The notes under the pieces were generated by a model that was given only the letters and a program-made list of their open reading frames with translations, was not told the DNA's origin and searched no databases. 64,000 nucleotides of DNA, taken from contig NC_086108.1 of assembly GCF_963921235.1 (NCBI RefSeq), forward strand, positions 40,426,001 through 40,490,000, in the 5' to 3' direction. The DNA is from Mobula hypostoma (Eukaryota). Positions within the stretch are counted from its first letter, which is position 1; each line of letters begins with the position of its first letter. Both the position numbers and the translations under genes were made by a program. This document shows, in pieces, positions 49,674-64,000 of this stretch.

Positions 49674-49967
49674 GGCCCCACCTCCCCCTCGTACCCCATC
49701 TGTTACTTATTTTTATGCACACATTCTTTCTCTCACTCTCCTTTTTCTCCCTCTGACCCTCTGAACATATCCCTTTCCCATCCTCTGGGTCCCCCCCCGC
49801 TTGTCTTTCTTCCCGGACCTCCTGTCCCATGATCCTCTCGTATCCCCTTTTGCCTATCACCTGTCCAGCTCTTGGCTCTATCCCTCCCCCTCCTGTCTTC
49901 TCCTATCATTTTGGATCTCCTCCTCCCCCTCCAACTTTCAAATCCCTTACTCACTCTTCTTTCAGTT

Positions 49968-50003
49968 AGTCCTGACGAAGGGTCTCGGCCTGAAACGTCG
50001 TCT
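49968..50003 (+). ncRNA. Minimal type I hammerhead ribozyme motif in the Penelope terminal repeat
   Basis: AGTC-CTGACGA-AGGGTCTCGGCCT-GAAA-CGTC-GTCT; core boxes intact; palindromic ACGT stem III; one stem I mismatch. Confidence 0.75.
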
Positions 50004-51199
50004 GCACCTCTTCCTACAGATGCTGCCTGGCCTGCTGCGTTCACCAGCAACTTTGATGTGTGTTGCTTGAATTTCCAGCATCTGCAGAATTCCTGTTGTT
50101 TGCATCTACTATTGCTACCTTGTTTTGTTTTGCATTTTTCAGGGACTTGACTACATTTACACTGGCCACTTTCAGATTGGCTCTTTAGTGGCTAACAGTA
50201 CACCGTGTAGTTTAATGCCCTTTAATTTGTGACAAAGTTCATCATATGCAGTCTCATTTTGTTCTTTCTAGTATTACATTCTTCCTAACAGCTATTATTG
50301 TTTTATAAACCAATCTTACTGTATCCATCAGTGAAATTTTGTTCGTGGGACCACTCCTTCACTTTCTAGGATTGAATTCTTTCTCCCAGCTATTATTAAT
50401 TTCGAAACTGATCTTACTGCATCCATCAATGAATTTTTGTTCTTTGCACCGCTCCCTTCATCTTCGTAAACAGAGAAGCAGAAATGTCAATTTACCATTC
50501 ATACTGTTTTCATCCATGAGGAAAAAGTTTTTTCTTTGGGTGGGGGCTGAGAGTACAGAACAAAATTGGAGCAGGGGTTGGCCACTGTCCCCCTCTAGCC
50601 TGTCCGCTGTTCAATATGGCTGATGTGTCCCCAAGTTACTGTACCAGTTCCACATTCTTTCAGAAATGTACCCACATCCTCTTCAAATAGTTCTATTGAT
50701 TTAGCTTCCACAACTCTCTAGGCTTGAGAATTCTAAAGAAGCATTTCCTTCTGTGAGAAGAGGTGGGTTAGCATGATTTATCACATTGATAAAAGGCACA
50801 GTAGTTAATTGTAGAAAACATTTTTATGAACTTGTCTTTTAAATGCTACTCGATTGCTTCTGCTTCAACCTCCTTTATACCTCAAGCTCAAAGCTTTCAT
50901 GCTTTTGAATCACTCATTTTCTGAGTGAGTTAAATGTTGGCAATGAGGCTCCCAAAGGGATATTAAATCTGCCAATTGAAACCACATAGACTACTAAGGT
51001 CACAGGGTTGGTTTCCCCCACATGTAACCAATTTGCTGATCATAGCAGTAGTTTGTGAGTGCCTCAGCCTACTTGTATATTTGTTTTTTTTACCAAATAG
51101 AGAGAAGGAACTAATTAATTTTCTTATCATACACCTGATCAAGCTGTAGTAACAAATGCCTCTATGGATAAGATGCCGTGGAGTGGCTAGTTCCTCAGG

Positions 51200-55674: not shown

Positions 55675-58600
55675 ATTCAAAGTTCAAAGTAAATTTATTA
55701 TCAAAGTACAGTACTGTGCAAAATTCTCAGGCACATGCCTGTATATATATAACAATAGTATCTAAGTCTTTTGGCAAAGAGGTTCACTCCCAGATGAGCT
55801 TTGATGAATTTTATGCTTCTTTTAGGGAGTACTCTGGTGTTGTCTGAATCTGGCAGATATTAATTCAAGCAAGAATTAGTCTTCAGTACTTAATGCAAAT
55901 CGCAAGCAGTAAATTGAAGTTATAGTACTGTGCAAAAGTCTTAGGCACCCTGGCTATATGTATGTGCTGAAGACTTTTGTACAGTACTATATATATATGC
56001 CAACACATATCACCCTTAGATTCATTGTCTTGCGGGCCTTCACAATAGATACAAAGAAGCACAATAGATTCAATAAAAGACTGCACACAAAGATAGACAA
56101 ACATTGTGCAAATACAAAAATAAATAATAAATAAATAATATCGAGAACCTGAGTTGTAGAGTCCTTGAAAGTAAGTCCATAGGTTGTGAAATCACGTCAG
56201 TGTTGGGGTGTTTGTAGTTATCCACTCTGGTTCAGGAACCTGATGTTTGAAGGGTAATAACTGCTCTTGAAACTGATAGTGTGGGATTTAAGGCTTCTGT
56301 ACCTTTCTCCCGATGGCAGCAGTGAGAATACAATGTCCTTAATGATGGACGCTGCTTTCCTGCGACAGCACTCCTTGTAGTTGTACACAATGTTGGGGAA
56401 GACTTTACCTGTGATGGACTGGACCATATCCACTAGTTGTTCTAGGCTTTTCCGTTCAAGTGTAATGTTGTTTCCATACCAGAGGGTGATGCAACCAGTC
56501 AGGATGCTCTTCAATGTGTATCTATAAAAGTCTGTCAAAGTTTCAGATGACATGCCAAAATTTGCAAACTTCTGAGAAATTAGAGGTGCTGCCATGCTTT
56601 CTTTGAAATGGGACCTATGTGTTGGACCCGGGATAGGCCCTCTGAAATGACAACACCAAAAACTTTAAAGTTACTGACCTTCTCTACCTCTGTTGCACTG
56701 ATGAGAGCAGGCCCCTGGATCTCTGGTTTCCTCCCCCTGTTGCCAATAATCAGCTCTTTGATTTTTCTGTTGTTGAGAAAGAAGGTTGTTATTTTGGGAC
56801 CACTTAGCTAGCCAGGTTTTCAATCTCCCTCCTGTATGCTGATACATCACTACCTTTGATTTGATCACAACAGTGGTGTCATCATAAGACCATAAGACAT
56901 AAGAGCAGAATTAGGCTATTTGGCCCGTTGAGTCTGCTCTGCCATTTCACCATGGCTGATTCAATTTTGCTCAGCCCCAGTCTCCTGCCTTTTCCTTGTA
57001 TCCCTTCATGCCCTAACCAATCAAGAATCTATCAATCTCTGCCTTAAATATACATACAGATTTGATCTCCACAACTGCCTGTGGCAAAGAATTCCACAGA
57101 TTCACCACTATCTGGCTAAATCATCTATGTTCTAAAAGGACACCCCTCTATTCAGAGGCTGAATTCTCTGGTCTTATACTCTCCTCATCCACTCTTCATC
57201 CATTCCATCAAGACCTTTCACCATTAGATAGGTTTCAATGAGGTCACCCCTCATTCTTTTAAATTCCAGTGAGAAGAGGCCCAGAACCATCAAACGCTCC
57301 TCATATGATAAGCCTTTCAATCCTGGAATCATTTCCCTGAACTGCCTTCGAATCCTCTCCAATGTCAGCATATCCTTTCTCCGATAAGGAGCCCAAGACT
57401 GCTAAAAATTCTCTGTGTGAGGTCTCAGCAGTGCCTTATAAAGCTTTAACATTATATCCTTGCTTTTATATTCTAGTCCTCTTGATATGAATGCTAACAT
57501 CAGATTCAACCTGCAAATTGACCTTAACGGAATCCTGCACAAGCACTCCCAAGACCCTTTGCACCTCAGTTTTTTTAATATTTTCTCTCTATTTAGAAAA
57601 TAGTCAACCCTTTATTTCTTCTACCAAAGTGCATGACCATGCACTTCCTAACACTGTGTTCTATCTGCCATTTAATTGCCCATTCTCCTAATCTGTCTGT
57701 CCATCGGTATCCTCTCTACTTCCTCAAAACTACCTGCCCCTCCACATATCTTCATATTGTCTGCAAGCTTTGCAACAAAACCATCCATTCCATCATCCAA
57801 ATCATTAACATATAATGTAAAAAGAATCAGTCTCAACACAGGCCCCTGTGGAAAACCACTAGTCACGGGCAGCCAACCAGAAAAGGGTCTCTGTATTCCC
57901 ACTCTTTGCCCCCTGCCAGTGAGCCACTGCTTTATCCATGCTAGAATCTTTCCTGTAAAGCAATGGGCTCGTGGTTTGTTAAGCAGCTTCAAGTGTGGCA
58001 CCTTGCAAAGACCTTCTGAAAATCCAAATCCACAACATCAGCTGATTCTCTTTCTCTATCTTGTTTGTTATTTCTTCAAAGAATTCCAACAGATTTGTCA
58101 GGCAAGCTTTACCCTGAGAAAACCATGCTCACTATGGTCTATTTTATCATGTATCTGCAAGAACCCCAAAACCACATCCTTAACAATTGACTCCAACTTC
58201 TTCCCAGTCACTGGTGTCAGACTAACTGGACTGTAATTTTCTTTTTCCTGCCTCTCTCTGTCTTGAAGAGTGGAGGGACAGCAAACATAAATATGGCATT
58301 GGATCTCTACTTCCTCACAGTCATGAGTATAAAACAAGTGGAGCAGGGGACTAAGCACACAGCCTTGTGATGCACCTTTGCTGATGGTGATTGAGGAGAA
58401 GATGTTTTTGCTAATTCCAAACTGATTGATATCCATGACTGAGGAATTTGAGGATCCAGTTGCACAAGGAAGTATTGAGGCCTAGGTCTTGGAAGTTATT
58501 GATTAGTTTTGAGAGGATGATAGTGTTGGATGCAGAGTTGTAGTCAATGAAGAGCATCCTGATAAATGTGAATTCACTGTTCAAATGTTCCAGGGCTAAG

Positions 58601-59728
58601 TGAAGAGCCAATGAGATGGCATCTGCCATGGACCTTTTACTCCAGTGGGCAAATCCAAGCATGCCTAAGTCACGTCTCAGGCAGGAGTTGATATGTTTCA
58701 TCATCAGCCTCACAAAGCACTTCATCACAGTGAATGAAAGTGCTACTGGGCAATATTCATTGAAGCAGGCCGTCACGTTATTCTTGGGCATTGGTAACTT
58801 TGAAGCTGCTGAAAGAGGTGAGTACCTCAGATTTCCAAAGAGAGAGATTAAAGATATCAGTAAACGCTCCAGCCAAATGATTAGCATGGATTTTTTCATA
58901 CTTGGTCAGGTACACCATATGGCGAGATGCATTCTGTGGACTCACATTGGCCTCAGAGACTGAAATCACCAGGTCATTGGGGGCTGTATGACTTCCTAAG
59001 GGTGCGTCCCTGTATTGTCAATCAAAGTGAGCATAAAAGGCATTGAGGTCAGCTGGGAGCGAACCCTTGTTGTCACATAGGTCAATTGGTTTTACTTCGT
59101 AGGAGGTGATAGCATTCAAGCCCTGCTGCAGTGTTGAGCATAGTTCCATGATTCAGGTTTGGTTTGGAAATGCCACTTTGCATGTGAGGTGGCTTTCTGG
59201 GGGTCAAATCTGGACCTCTCGTACTTTCCTTATTTGCTAGACTTGAACACCACTTGTCTAGCTCTCAGTAGATTGCTTGCTTCATCCAAGGCTCCTGATT
59301 TTGCGGGGACACACTGAGCCACAAATGTATTTATGAAGCCCATGACAACCATGGCATATTCATACAGATCCTCTGATAAGTCCTTGAACACGTCCCAGTC
59401 TATCAACTCGAAGCAATCCCTTAGCTTCTCTTCTGCCTTCCACATCCACCTCTTTGTTGTCTGTACCTCTGCTGCCCTGCTGTTTAGCTTCCGCCTGTAT
59501 GCAGGTAGGAAGAGAACAGCTAGATGATCAGATTTCCCGACATGCAGTCTAGGGATGGAATGGTAGGCACTGCCGATCGCAGTGTAGCAGTGGGTCAAGT
59601 GTGTTGGGACTCCTGGCGATATGTTGACGATGATTGGGCAGGGATTTCTTCAAGCAAGCCTGATTGCAGTCCCCAGCAAGAATGTGGAACCGACAACACA
59701 ACAGTCCCTCATTTCCCTCCAATGTGGC
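55675..59728 (-). mobile_element. Long decayed Rex1/Babar-like LINE, host to a CR1 insertion and to the LTR element
   Basis: VALSFTVMKCF, IRMLFIDYNSASNTII, GASQGCVLSPLL (RT) and GKSDHLAVLFLPAY (endonuclease) in broken ORFs. Confidence 0.8.
56883..58240 (-). mobile_element. CR1 LINE 3' part nested in the Rex1-like LINE
   Basis: YSPVSLTPVTGKKLESIVKD, VTSGFPQGPVL, VAKLADNMKICG, LSYEERL..LGLFSLE; (ATGGTCTT)-type tail at 56883-56900. Confidence 0.85.
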
Positions 59729-60286
59729 TGTTAGAGTGGATTTCTTTTGGGTAGATGATTTGTTCACACTTAAATGACTTTGGCCGCCAGACTTCTACTT
59801 TAACTGTTTGACAAAGGACTGTGGATTGAGTCCACCACAATGGGCTTCCTAAAAGGTGTGAATACCACATACTTCTGGTAGTTTGATCTGATGCTGTAGT
59901 TTTGAAGGCAGTATTTATATACATTATAAATATTAATTGTCTTCTATGTTAGCACGGGAAATGCCAAATAAATGTAACGTAGACTTAACTTATGTTCCTG
60001 AAGACTGTGGATACCAACCCAGACATGCTGGCTTCAGGAGGAAAGGATGGTGTGATTTTGTATGTAGCTTCCATAGGAAACATTGTCTATGCATTGTCTA
60101 TAACTTTTAAGTAGCAATTGCCTTTCTGTTTAGCATATAAATATCAAGCTCACGTTGAGCCAACAGACCTTTCTGCGGAAAGCGTCTCGGTATGTAGATA
60201 CCTGCTGTACCTTGTTGTGTCGAATAAAGAAGCTACTTTGTATCTACCAGTGACTGTTTCTCTGGTAATTTCATTGCGCTACAACA
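59729..60286 (+). repeat. 5' LTR
   Basis: TG...CA ends; TATAAATA near 60136; AATAAA near 60223. Confidence 0.9.
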
Positions 60287-60288
60287 TT

Positions 60289-60306
60289 TGGTGTCAGGAG
60301 TGGGAT
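60289..60306 (+). promoter_or_regulatory. Primer binding site for tRNA-Leu(CAG)
   Basis: TGGTGTCAGGAGTGGGAT is complementary to the vertebrate tRNA-Leu 3' end ATCCCACTCCTGACACCA and lies 2 nt after the LTR. Confidence 0.88.
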
Positions 60307-60567
60307 ATCTTTGTGAGCTGTTGCGTGGCCAGCGTTCCTAGCAGTCTTAAGTTGATGAGTATTTTTCTAAAATAACACTCACACTTGGATCTGTTCAGTC
60401 GGTGGACACACGGGAACACAAGGTATCATGAATGTGGAGAGCTGAATTGGTAGATATTAAAGTAGTGTGTACGTGTGCATGTGTGTTTATGTAAGTGAGG
60501 AATCTTTGCATGTTAACTTGGTTAACTTGGAGCCACCAGTTGCACCGGTTGGGGACACCAGAGGGGC

Positions 60568-62232
60568 GTGTACACTCGTTCGGGGAGCTGCATTCTAGTG
60601 TATGTGTTTGCAAGTGTGATGCAAAGGAATACAGTAGGCATCATGAGTTCAGGTACTCAAAGGTGGCAGATTGTGGAATACATACTCTGCGGTTTTATAT
60701 TTTGCGTAGTGTGGGAACTAGTGTGGGGTTATCTCAGGCAGAGGTTTTACCCAGAGAGATCTACCAGAGTGGCACCTATTGAGATCAAGCAAAGTCAGGT
60801 TGAGAACCCTGATGATCCGAGCCAGACCTTGACTTTGATTACGACTATTCATAAGCCCTTCACCCCTGGGGAGAAACAGAGCATTTTGTCCAAGTTGCCC
60901 TCACTTGAAGTCACCTGTGGGAATTCAGAAGTCTGGCGCAAACTCAAGGAAATGGTTGAAATTCACCAGATGCACCCTAAAGATATACATGTGTTAGTGA
61001 AAGCGAAGTGCCCGAGGAATATGTGGGACAGAATGGCCCGGGGGGGGGTGCAGGATGGTACATGGACAACTACCGGGAGCACCAGTAATGAAGAAAGATA
61101 TCGCTCTTTTAAAGGGGAAGTGAGGCAGCGCCTGGGGGGAGGCAAGAGTAGCTGGGGAATGATAATGGCAGTGATTCAAAAGGCTGACGAGACAGCCATG
61201 GATTACGCAGAACGTAAATACAGAGTGTACGAGGAGTATTCCGGGTTGGATAACCCAGGGAGGGAGGACCCTGTCTTCCTAAAAATGCTGAAGGAAGGCC
61301 TGAGCTCAGCCCACCAAGAAGTTTTAGATTTAGGCGTAATGGTAGGGTCCAACTACTCTGAGATAGTTTCACGGGCCAGTGAGATAGACCATAGAAAAGG
61401 CAAGAGAAATCGTAAAGTGGGTATATTGGATGCAGCTGCTGTGATGTCCCGGAGAGCTTGTTTTGCTTGCCAGCAGCCAGGGCACTTAGCAAAGGACTGT
61501 TGGACCAGGTATAAAACACTGAAGGAGTTGCTATGTTACAGCTGTGCCCTATCTGGACGTGGCTGGAGGCAGTGTCCAAACGAGAAGGGGAAAACCCAGG
61601 CGAAGGCCACAGCAGACACCCAGTCACTCACCCCATCAGCAACCAGTCTGACTGTCGATCAGATCAAAGAGTTAGTGACAGCGCCTCTTAAGGCAGAAAA
61701 GGATGTGGCAGCGGGCTCCACCGCCAGCTCTGATGACTCACGGATGTACATAACGGTTTTGTTAAGGGGACCCTGGGAAAACATCCAGATAGACTTCACA
61801 GGGCCCCTGCCAAAAAGCAGGGGGAAAAGTTACTGTCTAGTAATCATGGACCACTTCACCCGGTGGGTGGAGGCTTTCCCAACAAGGGACTGCACCGCTG
61901 CATGGATCCTAGTTCAGGAAATCCTCCCAAGGCGGGGAACCCCAGTCCAGGTGGATTCAGATCAGGGAGCACATTTCACAGGGAAAGTGATGAAGGAAAT
62001 GTGCCGACTACTAGGGATTCAACAATGGTTCCACGTACCCTACCACCCCCAGAGTTCAGGGATGGTAGAAAGGATGAACCGAATAATCAAGAATGCGTTA
62101 GCCAAAGCTATAGCTGAGACAGGAAATACATGGGTGGATGTATTACCAGGAATCCTGATGAGATTGCGCGCAACCCCGAACCGCACTTTGGGACTCAGCC
62201 CCTACGAATTATTGATGGGGCGAGCAATGTGA
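60568..62232 (+). CDS. Gag (N-terminal hydrophobic helix, capsid-like region, zinc knuckles) fused in frame to integrase core
   Basis: CFACQQPGHLAKDC knuckle plus degenerate CYSC..GRGWRQC; GPWENIQIDFTGPLP, DSDQGAHF, HPQSSGMVERMN (D,D,E present); likely start ATG at 60619 or 60643. Confidence 0.88.
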   Translation: MYTRSGSCILVYVFASVMQRNTVGIMSSGTQRWQIVEYILCGFIFCVVWELVWGYLRQRFYPERSTRVAPIEIKQSQVENPDDPSQTLTLITTIHKPFTPGEKQSILSKLPSLEVTCGNSEVWRKLKEMVEIHQMHPKDIHVLVKAKCPRNMWDRMARGGVQDGTWTTTGSTSNEERYRSFKGEVRQRLGGGKSSWGMIMAVIQKADETAMDYAERKYRVYEEYSGLDNPGREDPVFLKMLKEGLSSAHQEVLDLGVMVGSNYSEIVSRASEIDHRKGKRNRKVGILDAAAVMSRRACFACQQPGHLAKDCWTRYKTLKELLCYSCALSGRGWRQCPNEKGKTQAKATADTQSLTPSATSLTVDQIKELVTAPLKAEKDVAAGSTASSDDSRMYITVLLRGPWENIQIDFTGPLPKSRGKSYCLVIMDHFTRWVEAFPTRDCTAAWILVQEILPRRGTPVQVDSDQGAHFTGKVMKEMCRLLGIQQWFHVPYHPQSSGMVERMNRIIKNALAKAIAETGNTWVDVLPGILMRLRATPNRTLGLSPYELLMGRAM

Positions 62233-63400
62233 CTGCCTTATGGGGTAATTATGGGTTGCGGGGAGCCTGGGGCTTACAGGGATAGAATGACCCAATATGT
62301 GAAAGACCTTTGTAACCAACTTAAAGTATTAAAGGACCGAGCGAAACAGCAGCAGTGAATCGCTGATCAGAAAGAGCCAGAGGGAAAGGGGATAGCTCTT
62401 CCACAGCCCAGCGACCAAGTTATGGTGAGGGTGCTGCCAGAAAGGCCGGGGTTTTCCCCCAGGTGGATTGGACCACAGACGGTACTCTTTAACCAATGAT
62501 ACCTGTGTCTGTGTACAGACTCGGCGAGGCAGCCAGTGGAAACACTGGACTCAGGTTAAAGCATACAACTCACCCTTTTGTTGCTCCCACAGATGGAGTG
62601 GGGAACCAAGTGTACCCAGTAACCATGTAATTACAGAGAACCTAAGAGAGGAACACCAGCTGGCCATGCCAGACCTGACCACAGCTGATGAAAACATACC
62701 CGGAGAAAACGCAAAGGCAGAAAACACTGAGAGCGTGGCAGAAGACACTGAGAACATGTTGGAAAACAATGAATAGCCTGCTAAAGTGTGATGACGATGG
62801 TACTCTGTAAAGAAGGCTGGTTGCTGAAGGTAGATGATTAATTTTATAGCATAGTATAGAAAATTATTTGGGAAATAGATGGGGAGGGATTTTTGAGTTA
62901 AAGCAGAGATGGCATGTTCCACCACTTCGATGGCATTTCAGACTGCACCCGGCATCTGAAAGCAGTCACCCCAAGTCTGAGGAGCTGGGCCCTTTTCAGC
63001 AGTTGAGCCAGTGATCAACAGAACAATTCGGAAGGGGGTGCCACCAGGGAGAGGTCCTTGCAGACGTTTATGTAGAGGCCACCCCAACCCCTTCCTGTAC
63101 ATCGATGAGAGAGCCTGTGGGTGCTCCTGGAAGGACAGTTTCAGTGACCAGAGGATAAAGGGCTGAAGACAAAGAAATGTAATTAAGCTGCAGTCAGCCT
63201 GCAGGGAAAGAGCAGGCACACGAAAGGAGCCGCATTCCTAAAGACTTGGAACAGCCTCTCTGCTTAACATTTGGTAGGTAATGCTAGGATCGATATCGAG
63301 GTACATAAAATTGGAGGGGAATTTCGAGACAGGGCATTTTTGCTGCCCTATTTGAGCAGATCCTCCTAGGCTGGCCTTTCCTGATACAAATTTAACTTGT

Positions 63401-63423
63401 CCAGGAGGGCCAAGAGGAGAAAC
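63401..63423 (+). promoter_or_regulatory. Polypurine tract
   Basis: ccaggagggccaagaggagaaac directly before the 3' LTR. Confidence 0.65.
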
Positions 63424-64000
63424 TGTTAGAGTGGATTTCTTTTGGGTAGATGATTTGTTTACACTTAAGTGACTTTGGCCACCAGACTTCTATTTTAACT
63501 AGGAAGAGGTGCAGTCGACATTTTTGGATCTCCCCCTCCCCCTCCCACTTTCAAATCCCTTACTCACTCTTCCTTCAGTTAGTCCTGACGAAGGGTCTCA
63601 GCCTGAAACGTTGACTGCACCTCTTCCTAGAGATGCTGCCTGGCCTGCTGCGTTCACCAGCAACTTTGATGTGTGTTGCTTGAATTTCCAGCATCTGCAG
63701 AATTCCTGTTGTTTTTTTTCTATTTTAACTGTTTGACAAAGGACTGTGGATTGAGTCCACCACAATGGGCTTCCTAAAAGGTGTGAATACCACATACTTC
63801 TGGTAGTTTGATCTGATGCTGTAGTTTCAAAGGCAGTATCACCTATACATTATAAATATTAATTGTCTTCTATGTTAGCACGGGAAATGCCAAATAAATG
63901 TAACGTAGACTTAACTTACATTCCTAAAGACTGTGGATACCAACCCAGACATGCTGGCTTCAGGAGGAAAGGATGGTGTGATTTTGTATGTAGCTTCAAT
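63424..64000 (+). repeat. 3' LTR (partial), interrupted by a Penelope terminal repeat
   Basis: Matches 59729-~60075 apart from the insertion. Confidence 0.92.
63501..63717 (+). mobile_element. Penelope terminal-repeat insertion with hammerhead motif (63581-63616) and 13-bp TSD
   Basis: ttctattttaact at 63488-63500 and 63718-63730; empty site in the 5' LTR; AGTC-CTGACGA-AGGGTCTCAGCCT-GAAA-CGTT-GACT. Confidence 0.88.

Follow-up and report, generated by a model that had tools for sequence, protein, structure and literature searches.

A provirus near the end of the window, a stretch of 64,000 nucleotides from Mobula hypostoma, possesses an open reading frame in which Gag is joined directly to the catalytic core of integrase (IN). 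Judged by comparison with its relatives and with other copies of its family, this Gag-IN fusion is the product of a deletion in a parent element with the order Gag-protease (PR)-reverse transcriptase (RT)-tether-RNase H-IN. The element is real and most likely an ordinary deleted provirus, and there is a fair chance that it is one member of a deletion subfamily that was amplified, in a manner already known. A single deleted provirus would be nothing out of the ordinary.

The Gag-integrase frame and its decay

The frame is free of stop codons from 60568 to 62229 on the forward strand, to which all element features below refer, and ends with a stop at 62230-62232. The 554 codons of the original prediction were confirmed but its start was not, since 60568 is a GTG and in-frame ATGs follow at 60619 and 60643. 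Pfam recognised an integrase core (rve, E 2e-14) and one zf-CCHC in the frame; it found no domain of RT, RNase H, protease or the integrase zinc finger, in agreement with the earlier statement that RT, RNase H, the protease body and the HHCC domain are absent.

The gag part (60643..61737) comprises a short N-terminus with a hydrophobic stretch (approximately 60670-60726), a capsid and two zinc knuckles, one intact and one broken. It showed 35-39% identity to the Gag proteins of P0038, P0076 and P0124 and, among the clusters of the ESM Atlas, resembled those of retroviral capsids, with a top score of 0.90. Two knuckles had been proposed; the first is indeed complete but the second has Arg in place of the His found in the sibling protein P0014. 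The designation "TM-Gag" is likewise not established. The hydrophobic stretch is real (residues 35-53, with a Kyte-Doolittle value of 2.0 for the 19-mer) but need not be a feature of the family, because the three Gag relatives have no counterpart, their alignment beginning only at the capsid start, and because other family copies carry additional sequence within it.

Gag is followed in frame, with no stop between, by the first residues of a protease (61738..61764), and P0014 runs on from the same residues to the DTG motif. Next comes the integrase catalytic core (61765..62232) with its premature stop. The catalytic residues are intact, as claimed: D409, D465 and E501, encoded at 61792, 61960 and 62068, form a D-D(35)E arrangement. 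Integrase C-terminal sequence had also been seen beyond the stop at 62230-62232, and blastx to the relatives agrees. This decayed part (62233..62575) has a second stop at 62356-62358 and a frameshift near 62490.

The copy in the window has decayed since its insertion and is dead: one knuckle is broken, the integrase core is damaged, there are two stops and a frameshift, and a retroposon has entered the 3' LTR. The damage to the core consists of a loss of three residues near 61890, relative to all five aligned relatives, and of the loss of a Trp kept in all five. Inside the frame 15 differences were listed (among 40 of 881 rows), of which 10 were private to the window, 3 of them synonymous and 7 nonsynonymous. 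Since the neutral expectation for the synonymous share is 0.27, against 3 of 10 found, the private changes look neutral and there is no sign of selection. The length of the frame needs no selection either, because a frame as long as this one survives a drift of 1.3-3% with a probability of 0.42-0.14 and a third of all deletions preserve the frame.

The deletion and its origin

The breakpoint lies at 61765..61772, after ...ITVLL, where 5-8 nt are matched from both sides. In the numbering of P0207 about 890 codons (about 2.7 kb) are missing at the junction, namely the rest of PR, RT, the tether, RNase H and the integrase zinc finger. P0207 itself runs from PR through RT, tether, RNase H and the integrase zinc finger to the core, and its integrase is 68% identical to that of the window. 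The other side of the junction is represented by P0014, a protein of Mobula hypostoma that was the best match among 1.84 billion representatives (81% identity over residues 198-410). It tracks the window as far as the junction residues, beyond which it reads on into a retroviral protease that has the DTG motif.

Other copies of the family were found in the contigs of four runs from four organisms (X1, X5, X9 and X11; 4 of 24 runs listed), which were aligned on 59700-63430. Between 5,559 and 11,216 contigs per run fitted this interval. Relative to long single pieces the median internal depth was 500- to 950-fold; this ratio is not a copy number, but the family is very abundant. In run X11 there were 16 contigs with other sequence before 61765, and this sequence reads in frame as the integrase linker of the relatives. 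Contigs with non-window letters at 61722 and 61738 had matches ending at 61769-61772 in all four runs. Here the contig value is read as the distance to the match end, a reading suggested by its stopping at the LTR edge at 59728. So read, the match ends indicate that each of the four organisms has copies lacking the junction, and that the overlap between the two sides is 5-8 nt, a length that would fit template switching or microhomology repair.

An in-frame deletion was one of two readings offered by the original prediction, and it is the one supported by these comparisons: P0014 keeps the protease, siblings keep the N-terminal linker of integrase, and the relatives have the order PR-RT-RH-IN. 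Possession of pol by other copies had been named as one mark of a simple deletion, and other copies do continue normally on both sides of the junction.

The window copy is a dead member of a high-copy ERV family of rays that has lost the middle of its pol. We lean towards the view that the deletion is confined to one or a few copies and produced a functionless fusion protein, the frame being kept by chance (1 in 3). The deletion would have arisen at the 5-8 nt overlap between the protease start and the integrase core. One possible route is template switching during reverse transcription, after which the shortened copy would have been integrated by the enzymes of an intact relative; the other is microhomology repair in the chromosome. 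A restricted deletion is consistent with database searches: none of 3317 candidates was a Gag-IN fusion protein, and none was apparent among 20 matches (examined by their Pfam lists, with 4 sequences read) or among the best 150 of a further search. This absence is weak evidence, since repeats are seldom annotated in protein databases. Scans for related loci gave two distant loci only, L001 (47% over 34 residues) and L002 (30%).

P0014 has a non-window residue at the marker position 375, and for this reason it does not prove that pol was present in the window copy's own sublineage. The protease start has lost a proline, which was considered as a hint of a relaxed sublineage; this reading was rejected, as P0207 and P0014 also lack the residue.

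Distribution of the junction among copies

The extent to which the junction is shared bears directly on the preferred reading of a single or nearly single deletion. It is plausible, at somewhat below an even chance, that the junction is common to many copies, forming an amplified non-autonomous subfamily like that of the mouse element IAP 1Δ1. A non-autonomous family that borrows RT was the second reading of the original prediction. In its particulars this explanation is more tentative: the deletion would have founded a non-autonomous subfamily, copied between tens and hundreds of times in a common ancestor of organisms A and B by the RT and intact integrase of full-length relatives, with the fusion as a mere passenger. 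The window copy retains LTRs, a primer-binding site (PBS) and a polypurine tract (PPT), as such an element would. Window-type letters at five sites on either side of the junction (61691, 61738, 61830, 62397 and 60756) accounted for 19-94% of the depth in X1 and X5 and for 0-5% in X9 and X11, the exception to this split being 61738 in X11 (46% of a small depth). At a sixth site, 61722, the window letter made up 49, 26, 3 and 0% in X1, X5, X9 and X11, respectively. The window type keeps its depth at 26 nt from the junction, where that of the other type declines, and the ratio of the junction bin to the median was 0.57 and 0.90 in X1 and X5 compared with 0.31 and 0.30 in X9 and X11. Against these observations stands the fact that no contig crossing the junction was present among the matches listed. 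Furthermore, 29 contigs of X1 and 33 of X5 with a non-window letter at 61722 never match beyond 61772, and the non-window letter at this site makes up 74% of the depth in X5. Exact junction patterns had no match in the metagenome, viral and prokaryote genome collections, a result that carries no weight given how little ray DNA these contain. Noise in the bin depths and the poor annotation of repeats make the evidence weak on both sides.

Non-autonomous spread has precedents. In mouse IAP 1Δ1 a 1.9-kb deletion gave rise to a gag-pol fusion; the element is mobilised in trans while its fusion protein acts in cis (PMC6466679). The likeness to the window copy lies in an internal deletion that joins gag in frame to distal pol, and IAP 1Δ1, too, needs enzymes supplied in trans. 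However, IAP 1Δ1 belongs to class II and is active and multi-copy, and its fusion acts in cis, whereas the window copy is decayed. A Gag-IN family was considered an unusual architecture in the original prediction; given that IAP 1Δ1 already shows gag and pol fused by an in-frame deletion (PMC6466679), such a family, even if real, would not be a new architecture. Zebrafish BHIKHARI and chicken ENS-1 are gag-only non-autonomous ERVs without RT that are mobilised by partners (10.1101/2024.03.25.586437). They differ from the window copy in keeping gag alone and in having intact young copies; BHIKHARI moreover is a lokiretrovirus relative. Non-autonomous Troyka elements have been described in sea urchins (PMC12440569). 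No Gag-integrase non-autonomous element and no shark Loki element was found described in the literature searched, whose coverage leaves out most subscription journals.

A stronger version of the amplified subfamily would have the Gag-IN fusion translated and useful in cis, in RNA packaging or integrase delivery, with the N-terminus acting as a membrane anchor. We consider this improbable. In its favour, the junction keeps the frame and lies where the catalytic core begins, D,D,E are kept, and a cis role has been reported for the deletion fusion of IAP 1Δ1 (PMC6466679). The window copy, on the other hand, shows no visible selection, and the putative anchor has no counterpart in the three Gag relatives and is interrupted by extra sequence in other copies. 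Lacking the HHCC domain and a protease to release it, the integrase is unlikely to carry out concerted integration. It is equally doubtful that rays harbour an ERV subfamily of their own, of about a hundred copies, with a selected, membrane-anchored Gag-integrase fusion and a borrowed RT, as an independent, non-mammalian parallel to IAP 1Δ1. On that improbable reading as a whole, such a subfamily would have kept the integrase core without its zinc finger.

If the junction were shared, with or without a useful fusion, it would provide a cartilaginous-fish case of defective retroviruses spreading on helper enzymes. It would also make it possible to test directly, by dN/dS, whether a fusion of this type aids its own RNA, which has so far been shown for mouse IAP 1Δ1.

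Lineage, outer parts and surroundings of the provirus

The parent family is retroviral and class III ERV-like, and it probably belongs to the clade of snakehead retrovirus (SnRV), judging by its relatives and their motifs. The order PR-RT-tether-RNase H-IN is found in P0207, P0205 and P0196, whose integrases are 68-69% identical to that of the window where measured. The RT-RNase H of P0196 scored 368 bits against MLV, compared with 177 for foamy virus and 156 for Ty3. By eye, the RT and RNase H motifs of P0196 and P0207 match the SnRV rows and not the Loki rows of the PMC7947760 supplement. The class I RT motif was absent from the six closest RT-bearing relatives. For the integrase phylogeny 194 matches were reduced to 158 by length and uniqueness, 8 near-duplicates were dropped, and a tree of the remaining 150 cores was calculated with FastTree, rooted at the midpoint and labelled by motif. 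The window integrase fell into a clade of 11 with fish and turtle proteins (support 0.92). Its sister group is formed by class I-type integrases (support 0.84), and the Loki and Gypsy types fall elsewhere in the tree.

These results bear on a further explanation, according to which integrase would be expected directly after Gag because the element has a natural Gag-PR-IN-RT order (Gmr1-like) or is a lokiretrovirus. Many of the integrase relatives are labelled NYNRIN-like, and the Loki integrase is described as close to CGIN1/NYNRIN (PMC7947760). Nevertheless this explanation is very improbable: the relatives have the order PR-RT-RH-IN, no RT-like sequence follows integrase in the window, the integrase groups elsewhere and the RT motifs of the relatives match SnRV and not Loki. 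A Gmr1-like Gypsy element was ruled out by the position of integrase downstream of RT in the relatives, and a lokiretrovirus, which foamy-like integrase matches and the NYNRIN labels had suggested, by the RT motifs and the integrase tree. Lokiretroviruses do share with the present family the fish host group, a dual RNase H and the "NYNRIN-like" database labels, but differ from it in RT and integrase motifs and in integrase grouping. One row of a published supplement reports none in three chondrichthyan genomes.

SnRV-like ERVs, by contrast, are known in cartilaginous fish (PMC4422223, PMC6001957), whose ERV RTs mostly fall into clade III (10.1101/2023.10.17.562709). The likeness to this group (clade Huo/class III, including the elephant shark CmiERV lineage I) lies in the RT and RNase H motifs of the relatives and in the tether with a second RNase H. 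In common with SnRV the window copy has TG..CA LTR ends, a PBS and a PPT, the end of its 3' LTR being outside the window, but no env was found in it and most of its pol is deleted. According to PMC2717909 and PMC13517186, SnRV has one knuckle and an amber codon between gag and pro that is read through. The window copy has two knuckles, and neither it nor P0014 has the amber codon. Since there is no stop between gag and protease in the window or in P0014, the family may use a single gag-pro(-pol) frame.

The P0196 cluster includes a protein of the shark Mustelus asterias, and P0038 comes from Heterodontus. P0124 (a Gag with 35% identity to the window) and P0207 (a full Pol) are each listed with a metagenome contig of 8,182 bases and probably represent one near-intact relative. 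No description of the parent family, with its high copy number in rays, gag and pro in one frame and no env seen, was found in the literature searched. This ERV family of rays is worth annotating.

The 5' LTR (59729..60286, 558 bp) has the ends TGTT..AACA, and matches of contigs from other LTR copies end at 59728. A 2-nt spacer separates it from the PBS (60289..60306, 18 nt), which, judged from the tRNA 3' end, is putatively of the tRNA-Leu type. No tRNA genes were found in the 64,000-nt window. The 3' internal region (62576..63411) has family-level depth in all four runs and no recognisable match to env or other genes; three reading frames scanned gave no Pfam match. One of the frames has a hydrophobic stretch at its end, and the sequence is common to the family in four organisms. 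The region could be a decayed accessory gene or env remnant; loss of env is common in amplified ERVs (PMC6466679). The PPT (63412..63422) consists of 11 purines and its upstream extension is broken by CC. The PBS had thus been described correctly as intact, at 60289 after a 2-nt spacer, while the PPT is purine-rich yet imperfect.

The 3' LTR (63424..64000) is interrupted by a retroposon-like insert of 230 bp (63501..63730) and continues beyond the end of the window, so that the comparison of the two LTRs was confined to 343 columns. With 9 mismatches (K2P 0.027) the LTRs are similar, as had been stated, with the reservation that the 3' copy is interrupted and incomplete in the window. With the two rates used in PMC4422223, nine differences correspond very roughly to 6 to 60 million years, which is a loose range. 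That the assembly had joined two repeat parts is barely credible, for although the repeat is of high copy number and no read was seen across the junction, the LTRs, flank and nested insert are coherent and a short breakpoint overlap is typical of real deletions.

A target duplication of 13 bp flanks the insert in the 3' LTR (63488-63500 and 63718-63730). The window has similar copies of the insert at other places, and one at 49909-50101 is 96% identical. A 25-nt inverted repeat between the 5' end of the insert and its own interior is suggestive of a 5' inversion. A single sub-threshold Rfam match of the insert to a bacterial sRNA was taken as chance.

Upstream, the provirus adjoins decayed LINE-like RT fragments on the minus strand (57672-59728), which match Pfam RVT_1 weakly with E 0.002 and 0.045, so that it was probably inserted into an older retroposon. 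Further upstream, at 55921-55991, there is an inverted repeat whose 28-nt arms are 89% complementary and lie 15 nt apart; a further copy of the arm is at 55707-55734, and the repeat may be the remnant of a MITE.
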